Shown here one piece after another: positions 2,986-64,000 of a stretch of DNA of 64,000 nucleotides. Below the pieces are notes generated by a model. The model saw nothing but the letters and a program-made list of their open reading frames with translations. It was not told the origin of the DNA and made no database searches. Every line of letters begins with the position of its first letter. Positions within the stretch are counted from its first letter, which is position 1. Both the position numbers and the translations under genes were made by a program. Origin of the DNA: Nitrospira sp. (lineage in GTDB: Bacteria > Nitrospirota > Nitrospiria > Nitrospirales > Nitrospiraceae); assembly GCA_022226955.1 (NCBI GenBank), contig CP092079.1:948015-1012014 (forward strand). Reading direction: 5' to 3'.

Positions 2986-4064
2986 TAGGCGGCGTTCCTC
3001 TTCCATTCCTGCAGGCTTTGCGCGGCCAGGTTCACGAGACTCTGTTTCTCTCCCCAGGCCGGCGCGCGCGTGATCGGCACGTCCTGTTGGTAGAACACGA
3101 TTTGGCTGCCCGCCCTCTCGAATTGAAACGGCACATGGAGCAGTCCTGGAAGCGCCGCATGAATCTTCGCGTGCAACTCGGGTTTCGCGAAAATAAGCAT
3201 GAACCCGCCGCCGCCGGCGCCAAGCAGTTTGCCTCCCAGCGCCCCGGCTCCCCTGGCCGCGTCATAGATCTGGTCGATAAAGGGTGTTGTAATTTTGCTG
3301 GTGAGCCCGCGCTTGACCATCCAGGCTTCGTGAAGCAGTTCGCCGAAATCGCTCAGATCGTGATCGCCCGTGAGGATGGACACGCCCTCCTGCACCATTT
3401 GCAACATGGCAAAGAGTTCGACGCGGCGCTGTTTGGTTTTCTCGATCTGCTCCTTGGCGATATCCGATGCCGTGCGGGAAAACCCCGTGAAGTACAGCAA
3501 CAGGTGATCCTGAAATGCCTGCAACCGCTCCGGCTTCATAATGATCGGGGTATATCCGACCTCTCCAGTCTGCCCAAAGTTGAGCCGGCAGAGTCCTCCG
3601 TAGGCAGCCAGCATCTGGTCTTGCGAGCCGACGGATTCCTGCAAGATCTCCTGCTCGACATGAATAGCCGCTTGCGCCAGTTCCGCTTTGGCCGGCATGC
3701 GATGGCGAAGGGCATAGAGGGCATGCAGCAGGCCGACGGTAAAGGAGGAACTGGACCCCAGCCCGGTTCTGGCCGGCAGATCGCCGTCGTGATGGATCTC
3801 AAGACCGTCCGTTACATTCAAATATTGCAGCACGCCCTTGACTGCAGGATGCTCGATCTCGGCATTGTCCTTCGCATGCTCGATTCTCGAATAGGCAATG
3901 CGCGTCTTATGCTCGAAGAACGGCGGGAGGTGCCGGCAGCTGATATAACAATACTTATCGATGGTGGTGGCGAGCACGGCGCCGCCGTGTTCTTTAAACC
4001 ACACGGGATAATCGGTTCCGCCTCCGAAGAAGGAAATGCGAAAGGGTGTGCGGCTGATAATCAT
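2985..4064 (-). CDS. hddA: GHMP-family sugar kinase (HddA-like D-glycero-D-manno-heptose-7-phosphate kinase)
   Basis: MIISRTPFRISFFGGGTDYP, PARTGLGSSS, GSQDQ, GGKLLGAGGGGF. Confidence 0.88.
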   Translation of the reverse strand: MIISRTPFRISFFGGGTDYPVWFKEHGGAVLATTIDKYCYISCRHLPPFFEHKTRIAYSRIEHAKDNAEIEHPAVKGVLQYLNVTDGLEIHHDGDLPARTGLGSSSSFTVGLLHALYALRHRMPAKAELAQAAIHVEQEILQESVGSQDQMLAAYGGLCRLNFGQTGEVGYTPIIMKPERLQAFQDHLLLYFTGFSRTASDIAKEQIEKTKQRRVELFAMLQMVQEGVSILTGDHDLSDFGELLHEAWMVKRGLTSKITTPFIDQIYDAARGAGALGGKLLGAGGGGFMLIFAKPELHAKIHAALPGLLHVPFQFERAGSQIVFYQQDVPITRAPAWGEKQSLVNLAAQSLQEWKRNAA

Positions 4065-5060: not shown

Positions 5061-6017
5061 TTAGAACTGATGACTGAATGGACGCGACCCGTCTGCGATG
5101 TGCTCTCTTGATGAAGCCTGCCGCATAAACCAACGCACCGTTGTCTCCAGGCCATGCCGCAGACTGGTAAACCGGCAAGCGGGAAACCGATCAGAAAACG
5201 TCGCGCTACGCAAGCGCTTGACCAGCACGCCTTCAGGTTGAGTCGCGTCGAATACCATCGGCCCTGTATAGTCCATGACTGACGCGATGGTTTCGGCCAA
5301 GGTGCGAATCGTAATGCCGCTGTCCGGAGCAATGATGGTTGTGAGGGAATCGCTGCTGCGCTGAATCGCATCGACGACGATCTTGGCGACATCGTCAACA
5401 AAGACGAACTGACGCACCGCACGACCGCTGCCCCAGACGATAAACGGAGCCCCGGTGGTTTTGGCCAGCCAGCACCGATGAATCAGCGCGCCCACCACAT
5501 GACTGCTTTCGGAATCGAAGGAGTCCTGCGGGCCATAAATTGTAACCGGCGTCAGCGTGGTCCACTGCCAGCCTTCTTCTTTCGCTACAAGACGGGTATG
5601 GAGATCCAGCATGCGCTTGGCGTAGCCGTATCCCGCATTACCGGCATAGGGCAGCGCCGTCTGCAGATCGATCTCAGTCGTGGCTCGGTCGGTAAAGATG
5701 GGGAACGCACAACTAGAGAGAAACGAGATCAGTCGCTGCACCCCAAGGGAGCGAGCCGCGGATAGCACTGCGGTATTGATCAACACATTCTCCTCAAAGA
5801 AACGGCTATTGTTCGCCGCATTTGTCTTCACGCCTCCGACCACACCGGCCAGATGGAGGATTTGCGCCGGCCTGATTTGTTCAAGCAGGCGGTGCGCCAC
5901 GCTGCGGTCACGGAGGTCTCCGTCCGCGCGCGATAGAAAGATCGCGTCAGGCCGAAGCTTCCGTATGGCCGATCCCAGCAGGCCGGTTCCACCCGTGACC
6001 AATAGAGGCCCTGTCAT
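5061..6017 (-). CDS. GDP-L-fucose synthase / GDP-colitose synthase-like reductase (Fcl/ColC family)
   Basis: VTGGTGLLG, HLAGVVGG, SSCAF, YGYAKR, WGSGRAVRQF; start MTGPLL overlaps the upstream stop (ATGA). Confidence 0.85.
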   Translation of the reverse strand: MTGPLLVTGGTGLLGSAIRKLRPDAIFLSRADGDLRDRSVAHRLLEQIRPAQILHLAGVVGGVKTNAANNSRFFEENVLINTAVLSAARSLGVQRLISFLSSCAFPIFTDRATTEIDLQTALPYAGNAGYGYAKRMLDLHTRLVAKEEGWQWTTLTPVTIYGPQDSFDSESSHVVGALIHRCWLAKTTGAPFIVWGSGRAVRQFVFVDDVAKIVVDAIQRSSDSLTTIIAPDSGITIRTLAETIASVMDYTGPMVFDATQPEGVLVKRLRSATFSDRFPACRFTSLRHGLETTVRWFMRQASSREHIADGSRPFSHQF

Positions 6018-48153: not shown

Positions 48154-49560
48154 CTACGGCTCCGGCGCCGTCAGCGGCAGTTCGGTTTCGCGATACTCAC
48201 GCAGTTTATTTCTCAAGGTTCGGATGCTGATTCCCAATTCCTTCGCCGCATGCGTCCGGTTATCCTTGACCCGCGATAATGTCTTGAAAATCAGTTCCCG
48301 CTCCATCTCCCAGAGCGATCCGTTCGACGGCGCGTGCGAGGGAATTGGAACCGGATTCGCAACGACGGCCTGGTCCTGACGGGCCTCGGGAAGGTGCATC
48401 GGAAGGATGGTCCCCTGCCCGGCGAGCAAGACGGCGCGTTCCATCACATTTTCCAGTTCCCGCACGTTTCCTTTCCACGGCAGCGTATGGAGATGCGCCA
48501 CGGCGGCGTCCGATACCGCCGGTTGAGCGACGCCATTCCTGACGGCGGAGGCGCCGGTAAAATGACGCGCCAGCAAGGCGATGTCAGCCGGCCGTTCTCT
48601 CAGTGGAGGCACGGTGACGGGGAACACGTTGAGCCGGTAATAGAGATCCTCGCGGAACCGCCCCTGCTCCACTTCCCGGTAGAGCGTGCGATTCGTGGTC
48701 GCGATCACTCGGATATTGACGGCCACTGGGTCGCGGCCGCCGATGCGATCCACCTCACGCTCTTGCAGCACCCGCAAGAGCTTCGCCTGAAGGCCCAAAT
48801 TCATCTCGCTGATTTCATCCAGGAGAATAGTCCCGGTATGCGCCATTTCAAACTTGCCGATTTTTCTCATCATGGCGCCGGTAAACGCGCCTCGCTCATG
48901 TCCGAAAAGCTCGCTTTCCAGCAAGCCGTCCGGCAACGCGGCGCAATTTACGGCAATGAACGGCCGGTGCGCGCGCGGGCTGCGCATATGGATGAACCGA
49001 GCCAGCAATTCCTTGCCCGTCCCGCTCTCTCCATTGATCAAGACCGTCGCTTGACTGGCGGCCACGCCTTCGACCGTGCTGAGCAGCCGAATCATGCCGG
49101 GGTCTTGAGTCAGAATCGCGCGCCCTTCGACAGACGTCGATACGCCGGGCGATTCGAGATCCCGCCCTTCTTTGAGGTTCGCGATGACCCGTTCAAGCAA
49201 GTCCATGGAAAACGGCTTGAGTAAATAATCGCTGGCCCCAAATTTCATCGCATCGACGGCCGTCTCCACCGTCCCATAGGCGGTCATCAACACGATCATG
49301 GTCTGCGGCGCGCGCGCCTTAATATCTTTGATCAGATCCAATCCCGTGATGCGCGGCATCTTCAAATCGGTGATGACGAGCCAGGGGCGGAAGCGCGCCA
49401 CCCGCTCCAACGCATCGGCGCCATCGATAGCGCCCTGCACCTCGTACCCCAATCGCCGGACTGATTCCATCAACGCGGTGCGCATCGACGGTTCATCGTC
49501 GACGATGAGAATGCGATCCTGACTCTCCGTGCTGTCCATTGCGTTCTCGCGGTCATTCAT
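48154..49560 (-). CDS. fleR: sigma54-dependent response regulator, FleR/FlrC-like
   Basis: REC (ITDLKMP), GESGTGKE, GAFTGA, HTH (NRTHAAKELGISIRTL); start MNDRE (RBS GGAGGA). Confidence 0.88.
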   Translation of the reverse strand: MNDRENAMDSTESQDRILIVDDEPSMRTALMESVRRLGYEVQGAIDGADALERVARFRPWLVITDLKMPRITGLDLIKDIKARAPQTMIVLMTAYGTVETAVDAMKFGASDYLLKPFSMDLLERVIANLKEGRDLESPGVSTSVEGRAILTQDPGMIRLLSTVEGVAASQATVLINGESGTGKELLARFIHMRSPRAHRPFIAVNCAALPDGLLESELFGHERGAFTGAMMRKIGKFEMAHTGTILLDEISEMNLGLQAKLLRVLQEREVDRIGGRDPVAVNIRVIATTNRTLYREVEQGRFREDLYYRLNVFPVTVPPLRERPADIALLARHFTGASAVRNGVAQPAVSDAAVAHLHTLPWKGNVRELENVMERAVLLAGQGTILPMHLPEARQDQAVVANPVPIPSHAPSNGSLWEMERELIFKTLSRVKDNRTHAAKELGISIRTLRNKLREYRETELPLTAPEP

Positions 49561-50857
49561 GGGCGCGTTCCTCCATCGTCTCGACATGGACGGCCGACTT
49601 CGAATCGGATGCCGGCCGCTCATGCCCGCCAGGCCACTCTAGGGATTCTGCTCCTGCTATGGACGGCTCTGCCGGATGGGGCAGCAGAATCGTAAACGTC
49701 GTGCCTTCCCCAAGCTGGCTCTCGACGTCGATGCGTCCGTGATGCGCATCGATGATCGCATGCACAATCGCCAGGCCTAACCCGGTGCCTTCATCCTTCG
49801 TCGTAAAGAAGGGATCGAATATTCTGGAGCGGTGAGCCGGATCGATCCCTGGGCCGTTATCGGCGATGGTCAGACAAATCGCGCGCCCTCCAAAGGATGA
49901 ACTGTCTGCCTGCTCTAGTTTGAGCGTCAAAATTCCTCCGGTGGGCATGGCTTGAACGGCGTTTAAAATCAGATTCAAGACGACTTGTTTGAACTGTCCT
50001 TCGTTGCACCACATCGCCGGAATGCGGGGGTCGAGATCGAGCCGGATATCCACGGGGGTCTTGGTAATGGCATGGGCCGCCAATGTCAGGGCGTCCAATA
50101 TTAGCGTCTCGACGGTCTGCCAGCCGCGCGCCGATCGCTCCGGCTGTGTATAGATCAACAGATTGGATAGCAGGCGGTCCAGGCCATGGACGGCCTGAGA
50201 AATCTGCTCCGCATAAGCCAGGCTTGCAGGCTGCTCCTGCAAGTCGCGCCGCAGCATGGAGGCGAACAACTCGATACTGCCGAGCGGGTTGCGGATCTCA
50301 TGGGCGATTCGCCCGACCATTTCACCCATCGCCACTAAGCGGTGCTGGCGTTGCAAGCGTTCCTCCAAGCGGCACATCTGGGTAACATCGTGAATGAGGA
50401 TCAGCTGGCCTGACGATTGCTCCGAAGAAGCCTCCAGCGAGCGTTGCGCGATGGTCAGCACATGAGCCTCGTGCCGTTGAGGCTGTTCACTCACGGTGAG
50501 CTGAAGGCCATCCAAGAGCGCCTGCGCGAATTGTCCTCGAAGTGCATCGTCGGAACGGCCGAGGAGGCGCGTGGCGGCCGCGTTCACCCTCGTCACTCGC
50601 CCGCCGAGATCCACGACCAAAACTCCAGTGGTCAGAGAGTCCAGAATTCCGCTCAGATGCGCCCGCATCGCTTCGTTGTCTTGAAGCTGCTGCCGCAAGG
50701 CGGCATTGCTCTGGGACAGCTCCACATCCATCTGCTCTATGCGATCGGTCAGCGTGGCATACGACCGCTGCAGCGTATGGGCGGCTTGGTCGAAGGTATG
50801 AAAGGCCTCTTGAAGCAGGTCTCGCTCAGCGGGATGCAATGCGGTCGATGGGGTCAT
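49553..50857 (-). CDS. fleS: Cytoplasmic PAS sensor kinase, FleS/FlrB-like
   Basis: N-terminal coiled coil, PAS, AHEIRNPLGS, NLILNAVQA, FFTTK..GTGLGL; no TM helix. Confidence 0.88.
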   Translation of the reverse strand: MTPSTALHPAERDLLQEAFHTFDQAAHTLQRSYATLTDRIEQMDVELSQSNAALRQQLQDNEAMRAHLSGILDSLTTGVLVVDLGGRVTRVNAAATRLLGRSDDALRGQFAQALLDGLQLTVSEQPQRHEAHVLTIAQRSLEASSEQSSGQLILIHDVTQMCRLEERLQRQHRLVAMGEMVGRIAHEIRNPLGSIELFASMLRRDLQEQPASLAYAEQISQAVHGLDRLLSNLLIYTQPERSARGWQTVETLILDALTLAAHAITKTPVDIRLDLDPRIPAMWCNEGQFKQVVLNLILNAVQAMPTGGILTLKLEQADSSSFGGRAICLTIADNGPGIDPAHRSRIFDPFFTTKDEGTGLGLAIVHAIIDAHHGRIDVESQLGEGTTFTILLPHPAEPSIAGAESLEWPGGHERPASDSKSAVHVETMEERAHE

Positions 50858-53186: not shown

Positions 53187-54599
53187 CTAATTCGACAACG
53201 CATCGACACGGGGTTTCGAGTCTATTCCGCGTCGCTTCAACTTCTCGACAAGGGTGGTGCGATTGACGTGGAGCAGCTGCGCCGCTCGCGCGGTCACGCC
53301 ATTCGCCTTGCGCATGGCTTCTCCGATCAACTGATTTTCATACTGCTCCACTTCATTGGAGAGATGAATCCCCTCTTCGGTAAAGCGGATAAACTGTTCC
53401 TTCAGCTCTGGCTGACCCACCGTTTTCCTGTGCAGCTTCTCGGGCAAATCGGCAAGGGTCAAGAGCCCCTGCTTCTTCAGCACGACCAGGCGCTCGATCA
53501 TGTTTTCCAACTCGCGGATATTTCCAGGCCACTGAAAATCCATTAGCAGTTCCAGCGCATCAGGGGCAAACCCCTCGATAGCAGTTCGCTTCATATGATT
53601 GAATCGATTCAGGAAATGCTCAATCAGCAAGGGAATATCGCTTTGCCGGTCGCGCAACGGCGGCGTGACGATCGGGATCACATTCAAGCGATAGTAGAGG
53701 TCTTGCCGGAAGCGTTTTTCCTCAACCAGCTTCTCAAGGTCCTGATTGGTTGCGGCAACAATCCGCACATCGACCTGAATGGTCCGGCTGCCCCCCACCC
53801 GCTCAAATGAGCGCTCTTGGATGACGCGCAGAAGTTTTACCTGCAACGAGAGACTCATTTCGCCGACTTCGTCGAGAAAAATCGTTCCGCCATTGGCAAG
53901 CTCGAACCGGCCCATGCGCGTCTGAGCCGCGCCGGTGAAGGCGCCCTTTTCATGCCCGAACAGTTCAGATTCAAGCAGCGTTTCCGGAATGGCCCCGCAG
54001 TTAACCGGCACCATTGGCCGATCTTTTCGAGAACTATTGAAGTGGAGCATGCGCGCCACCAATTCTTTTCCGGTGCCGCTTTCTCCCTGAATCAAGACCG
54101 TGCTGTCGCTGTCGGCGACTTTTTGCACGAAATCCAAGACTTGCTGCATCGGTTCGCTGACGCCAATCAACTGCTCAAGACGGTACTGCTCGCGCACGGC
54201 TTTCCGAAGCAGATGATTCTCCTGGCGAAGGCGTTGAAACTCGATCGCCTTTTTCACCACCACCACGACGGTATCGGGGTCGAACGGCTTCGTCACGAAA
54301 TCGAATGCGCCGGCTTTCATCGCCTGGACCGCGCATTCGACCGTCCCAAACCCGGTCATGACGATGGGGATAATCTTGGAATCGATCCTGGTCACACGCT
54401 CGATCACTTCGATGCCGTTAAAATCCGGCAGCTGAAAATCCGTGACCAAAATCTGAACGGGATGCTCTTTGACGACTTGTATGCCCGTTGTCGCATCGGC
54501 GGCAACGGAGACGGTATAGCCTTCCGAAGACAGCGTCTCATGCAGTACATCACGCACTGCTTGGTCGTCATCGATAACGAGAATATGGAGAGGAGGCAT
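53187..54599 (-). CDS. fleQ: sigma54-dependent activator, FleQ/FlrA-like master regulator
   Basis: REC (VIDDD, VTDFQLP), GESGTGKE, GAFTGA, HTH (AAQLLHVNRTTLVEKLKR); heads the flagellar cluster; start MPPLHI at 54599. Confidence 0.8.
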   Translation of the reverse strand: MPPLHILVIDDDQAVRDVLHETLSSEGYTVSVAADATTGIQVVKEHPVQILVTDFQLPDFNGIEVIERVTRIDSKIIPIVMTGFGTVECAVQAMKAGAFDFVTKPFDPDTVVVVVKKAIEFQRLRQENHLLRKAVREQYRLEQLIGVSEPMQQVLDFVQKVADSDSTVLIQGESGTGKELVARMLHFNSSRKDRPMVPVNCGAIPETLLESELFGHEKGAFTGAAQTRMGRFELANGGTIFLDEVGEMSLSLQVKLLRVIQERSFERVGGSRTIQVDVRIVAATNQDLEKLVEEKRFRQDLYYRLNVIPIVTPPLRDRQSDIPLLIEHFLNRFNHMKRTAIEGFAPDALELLMDFQWPGNIRELENMIERLVVLKKQGLLTLADLPEKLHRKTVGQPELKEQFIRFTEEGIHLSNEVEQYENQLIGEAMRKANGVTARAAQLLHVNRTTLVEKLKRRGIDSKPRVDALSN

Positions 54600-54981
54600 T
54601 AGATTGTTATTCCCAAATGATATATAAAAATATGGCGCATAGGATAAAGATCCCGCCGCATCAATGCAAGCACAACGATCACGCTCACGCCGGGTGGTCG
54701 GCTGGGCCATGGGTCAGCAGTTAAGCCGAGCAAGCCATCATGATGGCGCTGGTGCGTAATTCGGCTAACCTTGCTCACCCATTCCGATTCATGACGATCA
54801 CCCTTTCCGGTACAGCATGACCCGTCGTTTTGGTGGTCATGATCACCGTCGTCCGGCAAGCCTGACCACTGGCAGACCTTTTAACTAGCTGTCCTTTCTC
54901 CTGGTTAAGCGAGTTGGTGAACTTGGTGTCCCGCCATCGCACTGCCATTGACCCGCAGCACGACGCCGGTGGTGTGAGCAG

Positions 54982-55050
54982 GGCTAACGTTCCGCATGTA
55001 CCAGACGCGCGCAAGACCTGCGCGCGTCTGGTACATGCAGTTGTTAGAGC
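54982..55050 (-). repeat. attC-like integron recombination site (69 bp)
   Basis: Minus strand: GCTCTAAC-aactg-[perfect 20-bp inverted repeat, 54994-55013/55019-55038, 5-nt loop]-...cggaac-GTTAGCC; 5-nt and 6-nt spacers as in attC; 22 bp after an ORF stop. Confidence 0.65.
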
Positions 55051-55071
55051 GCGATCGTTCCCGTTTCAGTG

Positions 55072-55890
55072 TCAGCTTTCAATAGTGACGATGTGCGCTT
55101 GGATCTTGCCATCGACAGCGCCGTAACCGAACCGCTTGCCGATGGCCTCCGCCGCGACGTTGGTCGCCTCGCCAAGCCGCGAGGCGTCGCGGGCTTCGAT
55201 CTCGTTTCTTAGGGGTGTTCCCTGGCAGTACGCTATGGCCGGAATCCTGGAAGATGTCGCCCGGCTGCGTACCACGACCGTATCGATTCGGGGCAAGCGG
55301 GCAAACCCACCGCTTGCGAGATCTCGCTCGATAATGCGATGGTCCTGATAGCCGTGGGGCGTGCGGGCCAGGAAGCGTGGCGGGTCATTAGGAAACAAGG
55401 ATTCGAGCGCTGTTGTGACGGTGTCAGCGAATTCGTTCTCTTCGATCCGATCCCACACGTTAAAAATGAAAACCCCTCCCGACCTCAGCACTCGACGTGC
55501 CTCCCAAAACGCTTTTGACTTCTCGGGGAAGAACATCACTCCGAACTGACACACAACGGCGTCAAAAACTCCATCAGGGAAAGGCAACTGCATGGCATCT
55601 GCCTGACGCCACTCCACAGGACGGTTGGTCCCGATCGTGGAAGCCAGGTCGACCATAGGCTGGTTGAGGTCCGTCGCGACAATGGAGACGCTCTCGGGTA
55701 GGACGGCTGCCATACTGCGAGTCACGACGCCCGTTCCCGCAGCAATCTCAAGTACGCGAGCGAGGGATCGCGAAGCTAGCCGATGCGCCAAATCGGCAGC
55801 GTAGGGCTCGAAGATCAGCGGAACCAAATACGTCTCGTAAAGCTTCGGGATCGAACCACTAAAGACGTTGTCGCTTTCGGGATTGTTCAT
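55072..55890 (-). CDS. Class I SAM-dependent methyltransferase (UbiE/COQ5-like), probable gene cassette
   Basis: VLEIAAGTG, ATDLNQPM, QADAMQLPF, DAVVCQFGVMF; start MNNPES. Confidence 0.9.
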   Translation of the reverse strand: MNNPESDNVFSGSIPKLYETYLVPLIFEPYAADLAHRLASRSLARVLEIAAGTGVVTRSMAAVLPESVSIVATDLNQPMVDLASTIGTNRPVEWRQADAMQLPFPDGVFDAVVCQFGVMFFPEKSKAFWEARRVLRSGGVFIFNVWDRIEENEFADTVTTALESLFPNDPPRFLARTPHGYQDHRIIERDLASGGFARLPRIDTVVVRSRATSSRIPAIAYCQGTPLRNEIEARDASRLGEATNVAAEAIGKRFGYGAVDGKIQAHIVTIES

Positions 55891-55960
55891 ACTGTGTGCC
55901 TCGGCTTCGCCCCCGTTGTGCTCTAATATGGGCAAAAGCAGCGCGTTTGCCCGCCGTACA

Positions 55961-56728
55961 TCAGTTGCGTCCGGCCATCACGCCGCCGTCCACGTCCCAG
56001 ATCGCGCCGGTGACCCACGCAGCGTCATCGCTCAGTAAAAATTGGATGGGTCGCGCCACGTCGTCAGCCGTCCCAATGCGCCCAATCGGATGGAAGCTGT
56101 CGAATGCGGCCAAGGTCTCATCAATCTTACTTGGCTCGATGAAGGCCCGGAAAATCGGAGTCTTCACCACGGCCGGGGAGACCGCGTTGACACGAATCTT
56201 CTGATCCGCCAGTTCCATGGCCATGTGTTGCGTGAGTGCATGCAATCCAGCTTTTGCCATCGAATAGGCGGAGGACGGCGTGGCCTTGATGGCCTGCTGG
56301 GCCCACATCGATCCGACATGCACGATAGAGCCGCCTCCGTTCGCCGCCATGTTCTTTGCCACGGCCTGTGAGATGAAGAAGAGCGCTCGATTCAGCTCTA
56401 AGTAGGCGTCATAGTCGGCCTGGGTATGCTCAACAAATGGCGTGGGCTTAAAGTAACCTGCCGCATTTACCAGGTATTTGAGATGGCGCCCATGGTTGCC
56501 AGCCATCGCAATGATGCGTTGGACTTGCTCCGGCTTGTAGAGGTCAGCTTGGTGAGTTTCAACGGGCCCGAGAGCGGATAAGACACGTTGTGCCGACTCC
56601 AGCTTGTCGAGAGACTTACCAACAATGGCCGTTGGTATGCTACGCTGCGCCAACAGCTTTGCCGTGGCGAGGCCGATGCCGCTCGATCCGCCGACGACCA
56701 AGGCATAAGGAGTATTCGACAGTTGCAT
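55961..56728 (-). CDS. SDR family oxidoreductase
   Basis: [31 protein letters not shown]. Confidence 0.93.
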
Positions 56729-56900
56729 GAGATGTCCTCCATCGGTTGGGTTGAGAACTCGCGGCGAGTTTTCTCAACTCATACCTCAAACGAATTATAC
56801 AAATGGTAGTGACGGGGAAAGCAGAACGTCTATCGAGTTGCATTCTTGAACTATTGCTAACAGACAGCGAACTAACAAACCACGGGTCAATATCCATCCA

Positions 56901-57137
56901 TTAGGCGACATTCCTTCGCATCTCGTCATACTGCTCTTTCGTGAGTTCACCGGCTGCGTAACGGCGGTCAAGAATCTGTCGTGGCGTTTCGTATCGATGG
57001 TCTCCCCTCATTCCACACCCCCGTCCCAAGCCTCGCCGCCAGAAGGCGCCTATCATGCCGATCATCACGACAAAAAACAGTAGTGGGAAAATCCACATCA
57101 AACCCATCCCCGTACCAGGTACACACCATGACCACAT
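56901..57137 (-). CDS. Small membrane protein with SHOCT domain
   Basis: TM helix then ILDRRYAAGELTKEQYDEMR. Confidence 0.85.
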   Translation of the reverse strand: MWSWCVPGTGMGLMWIFPLLFFVVMIGMIGAFWRRGLGRGCGMRGDHRYETPRQILDRRYAAGELTKEQYDEMRRNVA

Positions 57138-57318
57138 GAGAACCTCAAGACTTTCACTACGACTACAGCCTCAGTCGCTGCTTGCTGGATTTAGATCGCT
57201 AATGATTTAGCGGCAACGGTTACCGCAACCGCTCACAGGCCCAACCTGGCAATATGCTTGTCGCAAGGAGTCATTCCCGTTCATCCAGTTTATAAGACAT
57301 CCCGGCGCCCGGAGCTAT

Positions 57319-57762
57319 TTAGCCCTGAACATCTTCAATATCGACACCTAAACCGATCCATGCTCGCAAGAGGTCATGCCGTGTCACGGAGTACGCCACC
57401 TTACCGTTTCGTTGGACGGGAAGGTTCAGCAGTCGCTTTTCTTCCATAAGCTTCACTGCCGCATCAATACTGGTCTCCTCAGTGATGGCGATGCGGTCCT
57501 TGGCCATAATGTCCACGGCAGTAAGACGGTTCAAATCCTTCTGCGCTTCTAAAGCGCGAAGAATATCAAACTCGCTCACGAATCCGACAAACTCGCCACT
57601 CTCATCCACAACCGGGGCACCGGGTGTATGGGTTGCCAGTAACTCCACGGCGAGCCCCATGGCGTTTTGCTTTCGCCGAAACACCAGATTATTGGTCGCA
57701 TGGATTTGGCCAACAGATCTGAAACCTCCGACCGGAACTCCAGGTCTTTCTAAAGTCGCCAT
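57319..57762 (-). CDS. Stand-alone tandem CBS domain protein
   Basis: GAPVVDESGEFVGFVSEFDIL and LPVQRNGK...VTRHDLL. Confidence 0.9.
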   Translation of the reverse strand: MATLERPGVPVGGFRSVGQIHATNNLVFRRKQNAMGLAVELLATHTPGAPVVDESGEFVGFVSEFDILRALEAQKDLNRLTAVDIMAKDRIAITEETSIDAAVKLMEEKRLLNLPVQRNGKVAYSVTRHDLLRAWIGLGVDIEDVQG

Positions 57763-57886
57763 TTGGACCCTCCTATAAATTTAAATTGAGTGAGATAACA
57801 CGACATTTAGCTCCCACTCTGCATGCGAGCAGTGGGTATGCAAACGAAATAAGCCACCGTCATTACCAGCCGCGAGAATTCTTTTT

Positions 57887-58336
57887 TTACGATTTTGCGA
57901 ATGATCTGACGTATGAGATCACTTTCCAGGCCTCCTCTTCCGTCAACACAAGCGGAATAAACGGGGCCATGGCCGTCCCTTTGCTTCCATTCTTCAGAAT
58001 CCAAAAAAGCTCGCCGTCTGTCCGAGCCGCTTGCCAGTCCTTGTCCGTGAAGTTTCTGGGCAACGGCCCCCTGAAATTCTCAGGATTGATGTCCGTGCCC
58101 AGGCCTTTGCCGTCGATGCCATGACAGGTGCGACAAAAACCCTTGCCCTCAAAAATCCGTTTCCCCTGCTCGATAATTTCGGCGGCCATAGGATAGGGGT
58201 TCGCCTCGTGCCTGGCGCTGTCCATTTGGTCAGGGGGGACGCGCGGTCTCAAGACTGCTGGGTCAGCCGACCAAACGGTGGACGACATCCCCGCGATCAG
58301 CAACGTTGTAGCCACTAACCGTACGGGCACATGCAT
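57887..58336 (-). CDS. Periplasmic monoheme cytochrome c
   Basis: Signal peptide, CRTCH heme motif, GTAM distal Met; start MHVPVR. Confidence 0.9.
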   Translation of the reverse strand: MHVPVRLVATTLLIAGMSSTVWSADPAVLRPRVPPDQMDSARHEANPYPMAAEIIEQGKRIFEGKGFCRTCHGIDGKGLGTDINPENFRGPLPRNFTDKDWQAARTDGELFWILKNGSKGTAMAPFIPLVLTEEEAWKVISYVRSFAKS

Positions 58337-58558
58337 GATGCATCCTTCAAAAGATCCAAAGGCGGCGCGGCGAGCAGTCAGAGGAGTTTCTGCTGCTTGT
58401 CTTCGCCCGTTTGTTCGTGAGCCGGCCGCTCTTGTGGACTTAGTTGGAACGTGACGCTCTTTGGCCACATATACACTCCGGCAACGATCGCATTAACGTC
58501 AGCCGAATCGGTGAGCAGAGGCTGCACAACATTTGCTTAAAGGCCTTTCCGATAGCGA

Positions 58559-59074
58559 CTATTTATCCGACCGCGGGTGAGTATGGCTTATCGCCTGCGG
58601 GAAGGTCACGGAGCCATCGGGGAACTCTTGCCCCGGCTGCCACAAATGATAGATGACCCCATCGGTCTTTGAGGCCGTCTCTGCAATCTCCGCTGCCTGA
58701 TCGGCTGGCTCTAAGACCTGTAACCGGCCAGTGGCGATTTCCGCCTTGTGATCATGGAAATGCCGATGCCACTGAATGAGTGGTAACTTTCTGGACAGGT
58801 CTTTTGCTACGAAATATTCCACGCCGACAAGCTTAGCATTCGGTGCTGTGGACTCGAACAATAGGCACTGAAAGACTTGATCTGAGGCCGGCTTGCAATA
58901 ATGATGGAACGGCCCTCCCAGGGTACCGTCCGCCATCATATGCGGAACCTGCACATGAATTGTGAACCCCTCCACTGGGGATGGCGTGCCTCCGGCGAAT
59001 GTTAGACCGTTGCCCCAAGCCATGCTGAGTGCCGCGATAAGGACTCCTGTTCTCCAACCCGGTGTGGACTGCAT
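58559..59074 (-). CDS. Exported DUF1264/OBAP-like protein
   Basis: Signal peptide; HHYCK...QCLLFES...KLVGVEYFV...HFHDH..EI. Confidence 0.75.
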   Translation of the reverse strand: MQSTPGWRTGVLIAALSMAWGNGLTFAGGTPSPVEGFTIHVQVPHMMADGTLGGPFHHYCKPASDQVFQCLLFESTAPNAKLVGVEYFVAKDLSRKLPLIQWHRHFHDHKAEIATGRLQVLEPADQAAEIAETASKTDGVIYHLWQPGQEFPDGSVTFPQAISHTHPRSDK

Positions 59075-59118
59075 ACGCCCCTCCTCATAATAAAGTGTGT
59101 GTGATTCTTACGTGCCTG

Positions 59119-59430
59119 TCATGCACAACATGAGACTACGCCCTGGCTCTCAGCGGTCTCGTAGATGCGGATCTCTGGAGGCGCCTGGAGAAACGGCTTG
59201 AGCGTGCCTGCGACGTCTTTGGTGAACAGATTGCTAGTCAGGTATGACTTGGCATTGTCGACGGTATCGAAACCATGGAGCACTTGTACGTCTTCATCTC
59301 TGGCCAACAATTCCTTGGATTTGGCCCCAGTGACCTGCTTTAAGAAGGGGTCTCGATATTTCGTGTACACTTCTGCCGCCGCCGCGCGATCCCGCGCTGC
59401 AACCTTCAGGGTGATCTCTAGATAAGCCAT
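59119..59430 (-). CDS. Small dimeric alpha+beta barrel-like hypothetical protein
   Basis: 103 aa, RBS GAGGAGG; ferredoxin-like beta-alpha-beta pattern judged by eye; divergent from LysR. Confidence 0.7.
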   Translation of the reverse strand: MAYLEITLKVAARDRAAAAEVYTKYRDPFLKQVTGAKSKELLARDEDVQVLHGFDTVDNAKSYLTSNLFTKDVAGTLKPFLQAPPEIRIYETAESQGVVSCCA

Positions 59431-59545
59431 TGTGTCCTCCTCTCACGCTGAATGTGGAATGTGTCTCAATAAGCTTCTATAATTAAACAGATTAGATCAT
59501 TCATTGAGAAATTCTTTTTTTAAATACCATTTATTCATACAAGCT

Positions 59546-60514
59546 ATGAATCTTAGCCAGCTCCGCTTCGTGACGTCCGTCGCATCCACTGGTTCATTCA
59601 CGTTGGCAGCCGCGGAATGCTGTGTGACACAGCCGACGCTCTCGAACGGCATTGCGCAACTTGAAGATGAGCTGGGGGCGCGTCTGTTTATTCGCACCAC
59701 CCGCAGGGTGGGGCTGACGCCCTTCGGTGCGCACGTCTTGCCCTACATGGCAGAGATACTCAAAGCGCAAACCGTCCTCGCCCTTCAGGCGAATGTGTTC
59801 CTTCATCCGGATCAACGCCTCATACGCATCGGCACGTCTCCGCTCGTGGATGCATCGCTGCTCGGACTCATGATTGAGCCATTTCGTCGTGACAACCCGA
59901 AAGTGGACATCGTGCTTCGTGAGATGAACATGACGGATCTCTATCAAATGCTTGATCGAGGGCTGCTCGATTACGTGTTCGGGATGGCAGACACTCCCAA
60001 AAAACGTTGGTCGACCACCATTCTCTATGATGAGCCCTTATTGTTCATTCCGCCCGGACCAGGATGGCTCACGGTGCCACGGCGGGAATCGGTCAATCTG
60101 AAGGACATTTCCAATGAGACCTATGTGATGGTTCCCGATGCCTGCGGTTTAGCACGTGTGACGCGAGCGCTTTTTCGCAGCCAAAAGGGCACCCTAAAGG
60201 AATATTCCGGAAAGGCATTGAGCTATCACGTCCTTCAAGATTGGACAGCTCTCGGGATGGGAGCGGCGATCTTACCCAAATCGAAGATTACGGAGGGTCG
60301 ACAGCTTACCTATCCGATCAAAGATCGTACTGGTCAGGAGGTTCGGATCACGTTCGAGGCAATCTGGTTTAAAAACAAGGCACGCGCCCATCATCTACAA
60401 GCATTTGAACAACATCTTCGCAAGGTTGTTCCACACATCGTTCGGGGCACAGACCGACAAAAAGTAGATGGTAGAGCGACTCCTACTCGCCAACAAAAGG
60501 GTAGAAAAGAGTAA
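59546..60514 (+). CDS. LysR family transcriptional regulator
   Basis: MNLSQLRFV...GSFTLAA..C.VTQPTLSNGIAQLEDELG..LF.RTTR.V.LTPFG; AT-rich divergent intergenic region. Confidence 0.93.
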   Translation: MNLSQLRFVTSVASTGSFTLAAAECCVTQPTLSNGIAQLEDELGARLFIRTTRRVGLTPFGAHVLPYMAEILKAQTVLALQANVFLHPDQRLIRIGTSPLVDASLLGLMIEPFRRDNPKVDIVLREMNMTDLYQMLDRGLLDYVFGMADTPKKRWSTTILYDEPLLFIPPGPGWLTVPRRESVNLKDISNETYVMVPDACGLARVTRALFRSQKGTLKEYSGKALSYHVLQDWTALGMGAAILPKSKITEGRQLTYPIKDRTGQEVRITFEAIWFKNKARAHHLQAFEQHLRKVVPHIVRGTDRQKVDGRATPTRQQKGRKE

Positions 60515-60806
60515 GAATCTCGCTATCACAACCCGCTCTAAGTCACGTTGCGTTTGTACTAAAGAAGCACCGACGTCGGTGGCACGCACAGCATGAGCAG
60601 TTCTTTTCTCCGTCGGCAATGGTGATCTCGGCGCCGCATGGTCATTGAGAACTACGCGCCCGCCCGCGGGTTGCTGATTCACGGATCATGACCAATGAAG
60701 CCCCGATCGCACCATGAAATTAGGTGAGCAAGATTGCCGGAACACGTGGTCAAGAAAGCCGAATTACGCAGCGCTGGCGAACCGGTCCCCCAGGGTGGGG
60801 TTCCGG

Positions 60807-61124
60807 CACCATTCGGACTTCGGCAGTCAGTATGCTGCCACGAGCCACCAGCGCATACTCAATGGGTACGGCTTCATCCCAGCATGAGCCGCAAAGGCAA
60901 CTGCTGGGACAACGCCTGCGTCGAAAGTTTCTTCGGGACACTCAAGTGCGAGATGGTCTATCATCGACACTACGCCACACGAGACGAAGCGAAGCAGGAC
61001 ATTTTCGAATACATCGAGATGTTCTATGCACCGACACTCGCCCCTTGGCTACGACTCCTCGGCCGAGTACGAAGCGCGGGCGGCAGTCGCTTAACCAGGT
61101 GTCCACTGAATTGGGGGAAGGTCC
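60807..61124 (+). mobile_element. IS3-family remnant (3' end of orfB with frameshifts, plus right IR)
   Basis: [47 protein letters not shown] in shifting frames; IR-like TGTCCACTGAATTGGGGGAAGGTCC. Confidence 0.88.
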
Positions 61125-61129
61125 GGTCC

Positions 61130-61306
61130 ATGGCTACGTTTCAACAAAAGATAGCCGAGAAATTTCTTGCCAAGTTGGCGGGCTCCAAGGACGTGGACCC
61201 CGCTAAGGTTAAAGAATTGCGAATCTTACTCGCCGACGGCAAGAAGCCAAAAATCGACGATTTCGTGCGCATCTTCTCCCTTCCTGCTGGCACTGGCATG
61301 AAATGA
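61130..61306 (+). CDS. 58-aa helical hypothetical protein, translationally coupled to the ATPase gene
   Basis: [16 protein letters not shown]...[12 protein letters not shown]; ATGA overlap with the next gene. Confidence 0.65.
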
Positions 61307-61911
61307 TAAAACTCGAAACAGCCCACATCGAGGAAGTGCGTGGCATCCGTAAGCTCGACATCGATTTCCGGAAGAGCACCTTCGCGATTTCAGGCCCAAA
61401 CGGCTCGAGTAAGAGCGGTGTCATCGACGCCATCGAATTCGGTCTCACCGGACAAATTGGCCGCCTCACCGGAGGGGGAACCAAGGGCCTGTCCGTTTCT
61501 GAACACGGCCCACATGTGGACAAAACCAAGTTACTCGATGCGACCTTAGTCGAGCTGAAGGTCTTCCTCCCAGCCCTTAACAAATCGGCGACGATTCCCC
61601 GCAAGATTTCGACGCCCAAGAACCCAAAAATCTTCCCTGCTGACGATGATGTGAAAGCCGCTCTCGCCGAAGTTGCCGACCACCCTGAAATCGCGCTTTC
61701 GCGGCGCGGAGATCCTCCGCTTCATTCTTGTCGAACCGACCAAGCGTTCCGAGGAAATTCAAACCCTTCTCAAGCTTGATGAGATCGGCCACACACGCGC
61801 AGCCTTGAATACGGCCAGAACAAGCTGCAGGCTGCGCATACAACCGCCACGGCTCAGGCCAAAGCTAGCCGGGACGCGTTGCAGCTCCACCTCCAGATTT
61901 CAACGCTGCTC
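61303..61911 (+). pseudogene. Truncated, frameshifted SMC/Rad50-like ABC ATPase
   Basis: [16 protein letters not shown]...ISGPNGSSKS (Walker A, G>S); frameshifts near 61707 and 61817; stops at the start of the coiled coil. Confidence 0.8.
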
Positions 61912-62479
61912 GCGGCCTGTCCGGTCTGGCTCCGTGACTTCGTTGAGTTCGCTGTCGAAACAGGACTCCGGCTGGGCGAAATCCTGACCCTCCAGTGGCC
62001 GCATGTCGATTGGCATCAGGGGACGCTCACCGTGGCGGCCGCCACGACCAAGAACGGACTGCCGCGCACCATCCCGTTAAGCGACCGTGCGCTGGCCGTG
62101 CTGTAGCGCCAACAGAGTCGCCCCGGAACTGGGAGCCTTGTGGTCTTCGCAAACCGCACGGGGAACCACCGGACGCTCGGCACCGTGAACCGGGCCTTTT
62201 CGCCGGGCGCTGACCCGGGCCAGCATCACAAACTGCCGCTTCCACGATCTGCGGCACACGTTTGCGACGCGGCTCTGTCAGAACGGCGTCGATCCCTACA
62301 CAGTGCAACGGTTGGTGGGGCATCAGGACCCGAAAATGACGCAACAATACGCGCACCATTCCACGGAGTCGTTGCGACGAGGCATCGAGATGCTGAATCG
62401 GCTGGGGACGAGGCGGCTATCACGATTTTGTCACGCTCAGCCGCATTCGGCACTTGAGGCGTCCGAAGCAGTAGTGTAA
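61903..62479 (+). pseudogene. Phage-type tyrosine integrase catalytic domain remnant
   Basis: ETGLRLGE, TKNG, FHDLRHTFA, LVGH, QQYAH; in-frame TAG at 62104-62106 and a frameshift near 62200-62225; N-terminal domains missing. Confidence 0.9.
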
Positions 62480-62502
62480 TGTATTGAAATATTTGACGCT
62501 TG

Positions 62503-62577
62503 GCTGGCGTAGCTCAATGGCAGAGCAGCGGTTTTGTAAACCGCAGGTTGGAGGTTCAATTCCTCTCGCCAGCTCCA
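62503..62577 (+). tRNA. trnT: tRNA-Thr(TGT)
   Basis: Acceptor stem GCTGGCG/CGCCAGC, anticodon stem GCGGT/ACCGC with loop TTTGTAA, GGTTCAATTCC T-arm, encoded CCA. Confidence 0.96.
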
Positions 62578-62606: not shown

Positions 62607-64000
62607 TTACCGGTCAGCCTCCATCAAGGTCGATTCATCTTCCAGCTCTTCAACATCAGACTCGATCTTGCCCTTCGTGGTCGAGGGGTGCAGGCCGTAC
62701 TTCCGCAACATCTTATAAAAATCTGCTCGATACCGGCCGGCAAACTGCGCGGCGCGCGAGATATTTCCGCCGGTCAGTTGAAGCACATTCTTCAGATAGG
62801 TCCGCTCGAATTCTTCTTTCGCCTCTGTCAGAGGCTTCAAGGGCGTATCGGGAGACACTCCGACGGAGGGCAAGAGATCCGGCGTAATCATGTCCTGCCT
62901 GGTCATGACCACGGCTTTCTCAATGGCATTTTCCAGCTCACGCACATTGCCCGGCCAGGGATTCACCATCAAGCGATGCAATCCGGTTGGCGTAAACCCG
63001 CGGACATCCTTATTCGCCCGCTGGTTGCTGATTTTCAGGAAATGTTGGGCAAGCAACGGAATGTCGTCGCGTCGGTCTCGCAGCGGCGGAATGAATAATG
63101 GCACCACGGAGATCCGGTAATAGAGATCGTTTCGGAAGCTGCCGTTCTTGACCGCTTCGCCGAGATCCTTGTTCGTGGCGGCAATGATGCGCACGTCGAT
63201 CTTGGTCGAGAGATCAGAACCGACTTCGCGCACTTCGCGCTCTTGCACCGCGCGCAGCAACTTGACCTGCATTGAGAGCGGCATCTCGCCGATTTCATCG
63301 AGGAAAATCGTCCCGCCGTTGGCGCTTTGAAACAGGCCTTTCTTGGCTCCGTGCGCGCTGGTGAAAGCTCCACGCACATGCCCAAACAACTCGCTCTCGA
63401 ACAGCGTTTCGGGAATAGCCGCGCAGTTGAGCGCAACAAAGGGGCCTTTGCTCCGGCGGCTGTTCGTATGCGCCACCCTTGCCATCACCTCTTTGCCGGT
63501 TCCGGTCTCGCCGAACAGAAGAATGGTCGCATCGGAATCCGCCACTTGGGCGATCTGCTGAAAGAGCCGTTGCATCGCCGGGCTCCGCGCGACGACATTC
63601 TCAAGTCCGTAGAGCTCCTTGACCAGCGACTTGAGCCGTTGAATTTCTTTGCTCATGCGCTGTTGCACCAGCGCCTTTTCAATGGTGGCTTTCAGTTCTT
63701 TATCGTCGAACGGTTTGGTCAGATACCCGAAAGCGCCGCGCTGCATCGCCTCGACCGCATTGGGAATGCTGCCGTGGGCGGTCAGAATAATCACCGGTAA
63801 CTGCGGATGAATCCGCAAGAGCTCTTCCGTCACATCCAATCCATCTTCTCCGTGCAGCCGGAGATCTGTAATCGCGAGGTCGAACATCTTTTTTTTCGCT
63901 TCAGCGACGGCCTCATGCCCGGTTGTGCACGCGGTCACGACAAATCCCCCTGCGGAGAGCCGCATTTTCAACAAATGCAGCAACCCTTCATCGTCATCGA
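62607..64000 (-). CDS. NtrC-family sigma54 response regulator (GlrR/QseF-like), 5' end beyond the window
   Basis: VDDDEG...ITDLRL, GETGTGKE, GAFTSA, GNISRAAQFAG HTH; frame is open to the window edge. Confidence 0.9.
   Translation of the reverse strand, partial: DDDEGLLHLLKMRLSAGGFVVTACTTGHEAVAEAKKKMFDLAITDLRLHGEDGLDVTEELLRIHPQLPVIILTAHGSIPNAVEAMQRGAFGYLTKPFDDKELKATIEKALVQQRMSKEIQRLKSLVKELYGLENVVARSPAMQRLFQQIAQVADSDATILLFGETGTGKEVMARVAHTNSRRSKGPFVALNCAAIPETLFESELFGHVRGAFTSAHGAKKGLFQSANGGTIFLDEIGEMPLSMQVKLLRAVQEREVREVGSDLSTKIDVRIIAATNKDLGEAVKNGSFRNDLYYRISVVPLFIPPLRDRRDDIPLLAQHFLKISNQRANKDVRGFTPTGLHRLMVNPWPGNVRELENAIEKAVVMTRQDMITPDLLPSVGVSPDTPLKPLTEAKEEFERTYLKNVLQLTGGNISRAAQFAGRYRADFYKMLRKYGLHPSTTKGKIESDVEELEDESTLMEADR

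Follow-up and report, generated by a model that had tools for sequence, protein, structure and literature searches.

A single integron gene cassette with a methyltransferase gene and a bulge-free attC site in a Nitrospira genome without integron integrase

Single attC sites lacking an integron-integrase (SALINs) are a published class of cassette-bearing loci, and insertion of a cassette by the integron integrase IntI at GWT sites of the genome (attC x attG recombination) yields their layout experimentally (bioRxiv 10.1101/2022.09.11.507474). Clusters of attC sites lacking an integron-integrase (CALINs) need at least two attCs within the clustering distance of ~4 kb (Cury et al. 2016, PMC4889954; PMC9024848), and only two of them were reported for the phylum by IntegronFinder 2.0, namely in Ca. 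Nitrospira inopinata (PMC9024848). Here, a stretch of 64,000 nucleotides from Nitrospira sp. (contig CP092079.1, positions 948,015 to 1,012,014; in the following, the window) was analysed. On its minus strand it contains an integron gene cassette of 939 bp (window 54988-55926) that consists of a methyltransferase (MT) gene and one attC. With a probability of about 85%, this is a genuine gene cassette of a widely disseminated family that was stranded as a single attC-bearing unit, i.e. a SALIN. A solitary cassette of this kind without an integron integrase nearby had been proposed by the first-pass annotation, and a match to an attC model, the arrays in which the homologs reside and the lack of IntI in the genome all bear this out. 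The class as such is already known and the locus is no new kind of system. As a natural SALIN it is documented cleanly, with boundaries, source family and integron-borne relatives identified, and it resides in a nitrifier (Nitrospira) that matters both for the environment and for engineering.

The locus resembles the described SALINs in having one coding sequence and one attC with neither intI nor another att site nearby, in a left flank of ordinary genomic DNA that ends at the crossover point, in the right junction G|TT and in the position of the cassette, which follows a resident gene in the same orientation and could be expressed from it. It differs from them in its left junction, which is A and not the G of a GWT site, and in an attC without extrahelical bases. 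With CALINs it shares integrase-less cassette DNA with an attC, a genome devoid of IntI and insertion sequence (IS) remnants nearby, but there is only one attC in 64 kb and the next one is 144 kb away. The attC itself, with 68 nt (54982-55049), is similar to the short attCs of mobile integrons (aadA7-like, 57-70 nt, PMC5027507) in length, in the R'' and R' boxes (..YTAAC and GTTRR..), in the unpaired central spacer and in the short terminal loop. The homologous MT cassettes additionally have two extrahelical bases on the AAC arm, 6-7 bp apart, as the aadA7-like sites do, whereas the copy in the window pairs both of them. It is thus a natural analogue of the laboratory mutants without extrahelical bases (deltaEHB), made by added pairing partners and not by deletion of the bulges.

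The features of the cassette and its surroundings are listed in Table 1. On the minus strand, the stop codon of a gene of the SDR family (55963-55961) is followed by a small hairpin, the junction base A, the core remnant TTAGAGC, a leader, the MT open reading frame (ORF) and the attC. The cassette has a single ORF, which is oriented toward its own attC and preceded by its own Shine-Dalgarno sequence GAGG. Both core elements that the first-pass annotation had pointed out were found. TTAGAGC lies upstream of the ATG (55890-55888) and is separated from it by the leader of 29 nt; the inverse core GCTCTAAC follows 21 nt after the TGA stop (55074-55072), and the attC begins 22 nt past the stop. GCTCTAA (55050-55044) is complementary to TTAGAGC (55926-55920), and GCTCTAAC is kept as R'' in the homologous cassettes at L087, L167, L182, L169, L171 and others (L and G numbers designate loci and genomes of this comparison). 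The perfect 20-bp inverted repeat and GTTAGCC were confirmed as well. Spacers flank the repeat as described before, but they are 4 nt (AACT) and 5 nt (GGAAC) long instead of 5 and 6 nt. The R' core was assigned from the sequence, from the end of the attC model match and from the homology to six copies, which decays directly after GTT.

Table 1. Features of the methyltransferase cassette and its surroundings (window positions).
Feature	Position	Strand	Description
Cassette 5' end	55891..55926	-	Core remnant TTAGAGC (55926-55920) and conserved leader with Shine-Dalgarno sequence GAGG (55902-55899)
Junction base A	55927	-	G of the G|TT crossover in intact homologs; G in 19/19 homologs with the strict motif
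Cassette ORF	55072..55890	-	Intact 272-aa class I S-adenosylmethionine (SAM)-dependent methyltransferase, Methyltransf_11/25, UbiE-like fold (Pfam)
attC R'' inverse core GCTCTAAC	55043..55050	-	Complementary to the first bases of the cassette, TTAGAGC
attC body	54989..55042	-	AACT 55042-55039; 5' arm 55038-55019; loop GGTCT 55018-55014; 3' arm 55013-54994; GGAAC 54993-54989
attC R' core GTTAGCC	54982..54988	-	Crossover G|TT between 54988 and 54987, cassette 3' end
Small hairpin past the SDR stop codon	55930..55952	-	Upstream flank, no attC model match
SDR-family oxidoreductase	55961..56728	-	Co-oriented upstream neighbour, no cassette
Sigma-54-dependent response regulator	53187..54710	-	~290 nt downstream of the attC, head of the flagellar cluster
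Variable islet	54690..62502	.	7.8 kb between two conserved sigma-54 regulators
tRNA-Thr(TGT)	62503..62577	+	Far edge of the islet; marks the interval as insertion hot spot in the genus

The inverted repeat of the attC encloses a 5-nt loop, and two more pairs extend the stem to 22 bp and leave a 2x3 internal loop. No other perfect hairpin of the 3.64-Mb genome is as long, and only 8 have stems of at least 16 bp; the sequence is present in a single copy, both in the window and in the genome as a whole. The folding energy of the site as single-stranded DNA was -32.2 kcal/mol (z = -11.5), and the site clearly exceeds what chance would produce. Scanners based on AAC...GTT plus folding proved unspecific: a strict version missed the candidate, and a loose one hit ~17 times per 64 kb, for the most part within genes, and showed no accumulation next to intI. 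They were replaced by a covariance model (R1), which was built from 18 attC sites of the arrays that harbour homologs and from which MT cassettes and sites looking like the one in the window were excluded. R1 comprises a 7-bp R box, a 2x3 internal loop and stems broken by two bulges in the 5' arm. In the training set, 83.8% of the cells were paired compared to 62% in shuffles, and 85 double-sided changes were counted compared to 34. Applied to real arrays, the model detected 37 sites, 35 of them on the cassette strand, including attCs of the MT family that had not been used for training and reached 28-40 bits. In the window, searched with filters off, R1 gave one significant match, on the minus strand at the attC and end to end over model positions 1-55, with 22.5 bits (E 0.0086); the runner-up had 11.5 bits (E 2). 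The check by an attC covariance model that had been asked for at the outset therefore identified this site and no other one in the window.

It was considered whether the hairpin is no recombination site at all, but a terminator, a REP-like (repetitive extragenic palindromic) element or a protein-binding palindrome, with AAC/GTT and TTAGAGC arising by coincidence. Some observations point in this direction, as other long perfect hairpins of the genome resemble bidirectional terminators, the stem is bulge-free unlike canonical attCs, and AAC...GTT with a fold was a frequent hit in the loose scan. However, the hairpin is unique in the genome, has no T-tract and was not called by a terminator scan, and it is the sole significant match of an independently built attC model in the window. 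The end-to-end homology described below to attCs that belong to the same gene in arrays of other phyla, the coincidence of the 5' homology boundary with the core site in ~20 independent contexts and the absence of the gene from 21 of 24 congeners speak against coincidence as well, and the explanation is hardly credible. Neither a missing model match, nor homologs that never occur in cassettes, nor a hairpin that recurs as REP or terminator was encountered; the first-pass annotation had named these as grounds on which the cassette would have to be given up.

The MT keeps the SAM-binding motif VLEIAAGTG. It stayed under all cut-offs of NCBIfam, and its matches in the PDB were confined to the SAM-binding (Rossmann) domain. 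The gene is intact and, judging from dN/dS values of 0.10-0.16 against its homologs, under purifying selection. More than 120 MT clusters with 81-88% identity, almost all of exactly 272 aa, were found in metagenomes, and scans of species genomes and metagenomes gave 160 further MT loci. The homologs lie in long runs of small co-oriented single genes whose identity differs each time, among them genes for Glyoxalase, GFA, Cupin, SnoaL, RibD_C, DUF1801, acetyltransferases and others. The gaps between these genes carry canonical attCs such as CTCTAAC...GTTAGGC. At least six distinct array contexts were found for the MT gene, and 163 distinct contexts overall. The metagenome-assembled genomes (MAGs) concerned are labelled Burkholderiales, Gammaproteobacteria, Rokubacteria, Nitrospiria, Acidobacteria, Verrucomicrobia, Chloroflexota, Gemmatimonadales, Myxococcota and others; one MT cassette family thus circulates at 70-88% identity over many phyla in soils and sediments. 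IntI over the TIGR02249 cut-off was present in 11 of 16 genomes with MT homologs and in 0 of 14 control genomes. The question whether homologs sit in cassette arrays could be answered positively for copies with 78-88% identity from many phyla, in one case with verification beside intI: in G151, the MT cassette is located 12.6 kb from intI on the same contig in the expected divergent orientation, with many attCs between them. A plasmid collection contained only distant MT matches (≤70% nucleotide identity) and none to the flanks. Among the 24 congeners compared, 21 lack the gene and the remaining three have only paralogs with 37-46% identity.

The boundaries of the cassette follow from comparison with these relatives. 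At the 5' end, alignable sequence starts at the core G|TTAGAGCGCAAT...GAGGCAA.CAC.ATG in ~20 independent contexts, and the sequence upstream of the core is unrelated in each of them and usually resembles the 3' half of another attC. The leader in the window, A|TTAGAGCACAAC...GAGGCACACAGTATG, belongs to the same family as the G|TTAGAGCGCAAT leader. The strict boundary motif was found in 14 of 46 assessable contexts at ≥78% identity, in 5 of 52 at 72-78% and in none of 36 below 72%. The first-pass annotation had remarked that the upstream core begins with ATT and not with GTT; base 55927 is indeed A, and this turns out to be derived, as the intact homologs all have G. At the 3' end, six loci (L087, L093, L167, L175, L182 and L207) carry a full-length homologous attC with a mean column identity of 83%, and the homology between them and the window decays directly past GTT. 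Truncated versions of the attC occur elsewhere, with L085 keeping the same R'' and L079 the same L'-R' end. For annotation, this means that single attC hits, which are dropped by IntegronFinder under default settings, can be true positives and that comparative boundaries can prove so.

Two further observations were made on the homologous cassettes. In L079, the MT attC is reduced to its last ~15 nt, and an ORF-less mini-cassette of ~105 nt (TTAGACCC...GAGCGTTACGC, L079:3918-4052) lies between the MT cassette and the next gene. Decayed hallmarks were seen in L101 (a Nitrospiria MAG), L100, L093, L097, L189, L092 and L090, with the cores ATTAGCGC, CTAGAGC, ATAGAGC and GTCAGAGC or a degenerate R''. 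Such copies suggest that the cassette was fossilised repeatedly and independently in different lineages.

No IntI is encoded in the genome. The search for intI that had been recommended gave nothing over the TIGR02249 cut-off of 265 bits; the best match, to Xer-type proteins, reached 86 bits. A second attC was not found in the 64-kb window by R1 with filters off, and a rigid-architecture attC scan of the genome showed neither an excess over the reversed-sequence null nor an array-like excess. Since the genome has no IntI and the window no second attC, the locus was assigned to the SALINs and neither to the CALINs nor to the complete integrons. The whole-genome search with R1 revealed one other isolated canonical attC (C1:1147332-1147395, minus strand, 39.2 bits). 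This site (GCATAAC...GTTCGGC) closes a low-GC unit of two genes with the ORFs 1147347-1148309 and 1148306-1149136, and no integrase is found there either. In the last ORF there is a DPPY motif like that of DNA N6-adenine methyltransferases, and the unit may be a two-gene cassette with a restriction-modification system or an orphan methylase.

Chromosomal integrons do exist in the genus. IntI over the cut-off was found in 12 of 134 Nitrospira species genomes, and fragments in several more, including the complete genome G023. Examples are L062-L071 (G095:C10:248337-249269, G096:C15:66604-67548 and G090:C2:201470-202414). In the neighbourhoods of congener intI genes that were inspected (L072-L076), there was no obvious repeat family, and R1 found no attC; the attCs beside these intI genes may be divergent, or the layout may be unusual. 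Beside intI of G096 (L073), an element of ~51 nt recurs at 3353-3403 and 5273-5323 with 84% identity. It ends with GAGAGGTTAGCG, or ...CATGAGAGGTTAGCG on the minus strand, and could be the attC type of this lineage, inverted relative to intI.

The cassette is not wedged in by conserved genes. It is part of a variable islet with genes for the MT cassette, SDR, SHOCT, CBS, cytochrome c, DUF1264 and LysR proteins, an rve transposase fragment (60734-61306), an AAA_23 fragment and a frameshifted tyrosine-recombinase fragment (61879-62457) beside tRNA-Thr. In the closest congeners, the two sigma-54 regulators that border the islet are 0.9-2.5 kb apart with tRNA-Thr between them, compared to 7.8 kb here, and nucleotide homology to relatives ends at ~54680. 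The islet is similar to tRNA-linked genomic islets in that a variable segment with recombinase and transposase debris lies beside tRNA-Thr and that its cargo varies in congeners. It differs in that the variable DNA is 5' of the tRNA, no tRNA-derived direct repeat was found in the window and only part of a recombinase is present. In G023 (10.4 kb, unrelated content), as in this genome, the variable DNA is situated 5' of tRNA-Thr, and in G006 and G017 it is situated 3' (loci L057, L058, L059 and L061).

Neighbouring genes were examined as further cassettes and rejected. The SDR gene is ~80% identical to SDR genes of congeners in unrelated, attC-free contexts, where it is an ordinary chromosomal gene, and the homology ends at 55947-55963; its flank is a hairpin without attC. 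Gaps between the other islet genes have no R''/R' boxes and no attC model matches. The recombinase fragment was also rejected as the stump of an intI gene. It scored 40 bits on TIGR02249, whereas fragments of true IntI in congeners scored 150-240 bits. It shares 47-53% identity with congener IntI over 38 aa compared to 41-50% with XerC/XerD of its own genome. Because it is no closer to IntI than to Xer proteins and is too short to span the IntI-specific region, whose insertion the first-pass annotation had reported as lacking, it cannot be distinguished from the Xer type and was not tied to an integron.

These results bear on another possible origin, namely that a chromosomal integron decayed at this locus until only the cassette remained, with the recombinase fragment at 61.9-62.5 kb as what is left of intI and the rest lost through IS activity and deletions. 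Integrons of the genus would offer a source, and loss of intI as well as IS-mediated rearrangement are listed among the routes to integrase-less attCs (Cury et al. 2016, PMC4889954). The islet contains the transposase fragment, the recombinase fragment has the orientation expected of intI, away from the genes on the minus strand, and the genes from MT to a 103-aa ORF are co-oriented with short gaps. The sequence past the attC starts with TTAGCC like the beginning of a next cassette and the 290 nt that follow match nothing. On the other hand, the recombinase fragment is no better an IntI than a Xer protein, no other attC or remnant was seen in the window and the adjoining SDR gene is an ordinary chromosomal one. 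Moreover, an opposite-strand LysR gene and other non-cassette DNA lie between the cassette and the recombinase fragment, and the end of a deletion would have to coincide precisely with the crossover point on the left. This origin was judged quite unlikely. The 290-nt spacer as stump of a next cassette was rejected, as it has no match in 246 loci or in the genome.

Insertion of the cassette by IntI at a non-att site is the favoured route, because the ordinary flank of the SDR gene abuts the cassette exactly at the crossover position, as in the experimental GWT insertions. IntI acting in trans would have joined the folded attC to a genomic site directly past the hairpin of the SDR gene. A transient integron of this lineage may have supplied the integrase; alternatively, the cassette may have been inserted in a donor of the 7.8-kb islet. 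The expected empty target would read ...TTTTGCCCAT-G/A-TTAGCCCTGCTC.... Later drift would have turned the G of the junction into A and the quasi-palindrome of the attC into a perfect palindrome.

Several points weigh against a stranded cassette that arrived in this way. The right junction is G|TT, but the left one is A|TT and not of the GWT type, which calls for a later change of G to A or for an atypical site. The right half of the target, TTAGCC, fits the core consensus well and could be the start of a lost next cassette. The insertion was not seen directly, since the flanks are unique and no empty site was found. The attC score of 22.5 bits is modest and the calibration of R1 is rough. Finally, attC(aadA7) and attC(oxa2) without extrahelical bases retain bottom-strand recombination (PMC5027507), and one site with a 7-nt loop is a narrow basis for the perfection of the palindrome discussed below, for which independent compensatory changes could also account; confidence in that part is moderate.

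The stem without extrahelical bases, which the first-pass annotation had listed as an oddity, was confirmed, as the arms pair bulge-free. It is a derived state as inferred from six homologs at 79-85% protein identity, because only the copy in the window pairs the bulges that all six attCs keep. On the top strand, the AAC-bearing arm of these sites leaves two bases unpaired, GCAT[G]TACC(C)GG[A]CGCGCGC opposite GCGCGCGCCGGTAATGC, with the bulged G and A spaced by 6-7 bp, and the sites fold with -17 to -22 kcal/mol. Compared to the homologs, the 3' arm of the window, GCGCGCGTCTGGTACATGC, has an additional T, a change of C to T and an additional C. The three changes pair the bulged A, a G to A substitution of the 5' arm and the bulged G, and the result is a perfect palindrome. 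The loop AGGTCTT matches the loop AAGAGCN of the homologs at 2 of 7 positions directly and at 5 of 7 when reverse-complemented; the chance of at least 5 of 7 matches is ~0.01 by our own binomial estimate.

Template switching is known to homogenise the arms of inverted repeats and to invert their spacers (PMC8604942, PMC7202029). As homogenised arms and an inverted spacer are its signature at quasi-palindromes, a single intramolecular switch would be the simplest way to the present site: it would have copied the bulge-bearing 5' arm onto the 3' arm, inverted the loop and erased the two extrahelical bases that direct IntI to the bottom strand, and thereby locked the cassette in place. The coordinated changes resemble quasi-palindrome mutations described before (PMC7202029, PMC8604942, PMC8794818), with the difference that they were deduced here by comparison with homologs and not with an observed ancestor. 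The idea, including a use of the hairpin as insulator or transcript-end element, is tentative and rather doubtful. No description of an attC perfected by template switching was found in the literature searched. If true, perfection of the palindrome would be a route of cassette fixation distinct from loss of the attC. The authors of the SALIN class propose domestication through deletion of the attC by replication slippage (bioRxiv 10.1101/2022.09.11.507474), whereas the attC here was retained and perfected. Should this be general, attCs without bulges and with an inverted spacer would be expected more often in SALINs than among their relatives in arrays.

The extrahelical bases of the homologs have the same position and spacing as those through which IntI selects the bottom strand (Nivina et al. 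2016, PMC5027507). Their loss removes strand selectivity and decreased recombination of the VCR site 50-fold (PMC5027507). The lost bulges, the junction base A and an R1 score 6-17 bits under those of all six homologs suggest that the site in the window has lost its strand selectivity and has no usable upstream partner for excision. The cassette has probably lost its normal mobility. Conversely, it might be a still fully mobilisable reservoir that an incoming IntI could excise, with the perfect stem being neutral or favourable. Deletion of the extrahelical bases left bottom-strand recombination of attC(aadA7) and attC(oxa2) undiminished (PMC5027507), IntI1 can excise cassettes inserted in genomes (bioRxiv 10.1101/2022.09.11.507474), integrons circulate in the genus, and the attC retains its R boxes, the AAC/GTT triplets and the unpaired central spacer. 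Excision would need a partner upstream, but the left junction is ATT beside non-att DNA with no folded attC, and the effect on VCR and the deficit in score argue against full mobility as well. Long perfect GC-rich palindromes may be hard to extrude or be targets of SbcCD-type cleavage, and the 22-bp palindrome may behave in this way. Full mobility was therefore regarded as unlikely. As a natural analogue of extrahelical-base loss, the site can be tested directly for strand selectivity and excision.

No sigma-70-like promoter was predicted in 54500-56100, and the MT gene is therefore probably transcribed by read-through from the co-oriented SDR gene. For the flagellar regulator that follows, the highly stable hairpin may now be an insulator or an element at which transcripts end. 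The cassette had been placed directly upstream of a flagellar master regulator, and a sigma-54 response regulator does head the flagellar cluster downstream of it; its position makes a role as master regulator plausible, and it reached no equivalog cut-off of NCBIfam. The cluster comprises FliF, FliG, FliI, FliK, FlgE, FliR, FlhB, FlhA and a FleS/FleR-like pair. In agreement with the host, FlhA falls into a cluster at ≥90% identity in which every named member is from Nitrospira or Nitrospirota. The second conserved sigma-54 regulator is located at 62607-63998. Altogether, three sigma-54 response regulators and a PAS histidine kinase (48154-50857, 53187-54710 and 62607-63998) flank the flagellar cluster, and the genome encodes at least 10 sigma-54 activators at E ≤ 1e-100, as do congeners. 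A CBS-domain gene of ~145 aa was found in the islet at 57319-57762, and a CBS gene of 142 aa (L080:3401-3829) directly precedes the MT cassette in the arrays L080-L083.

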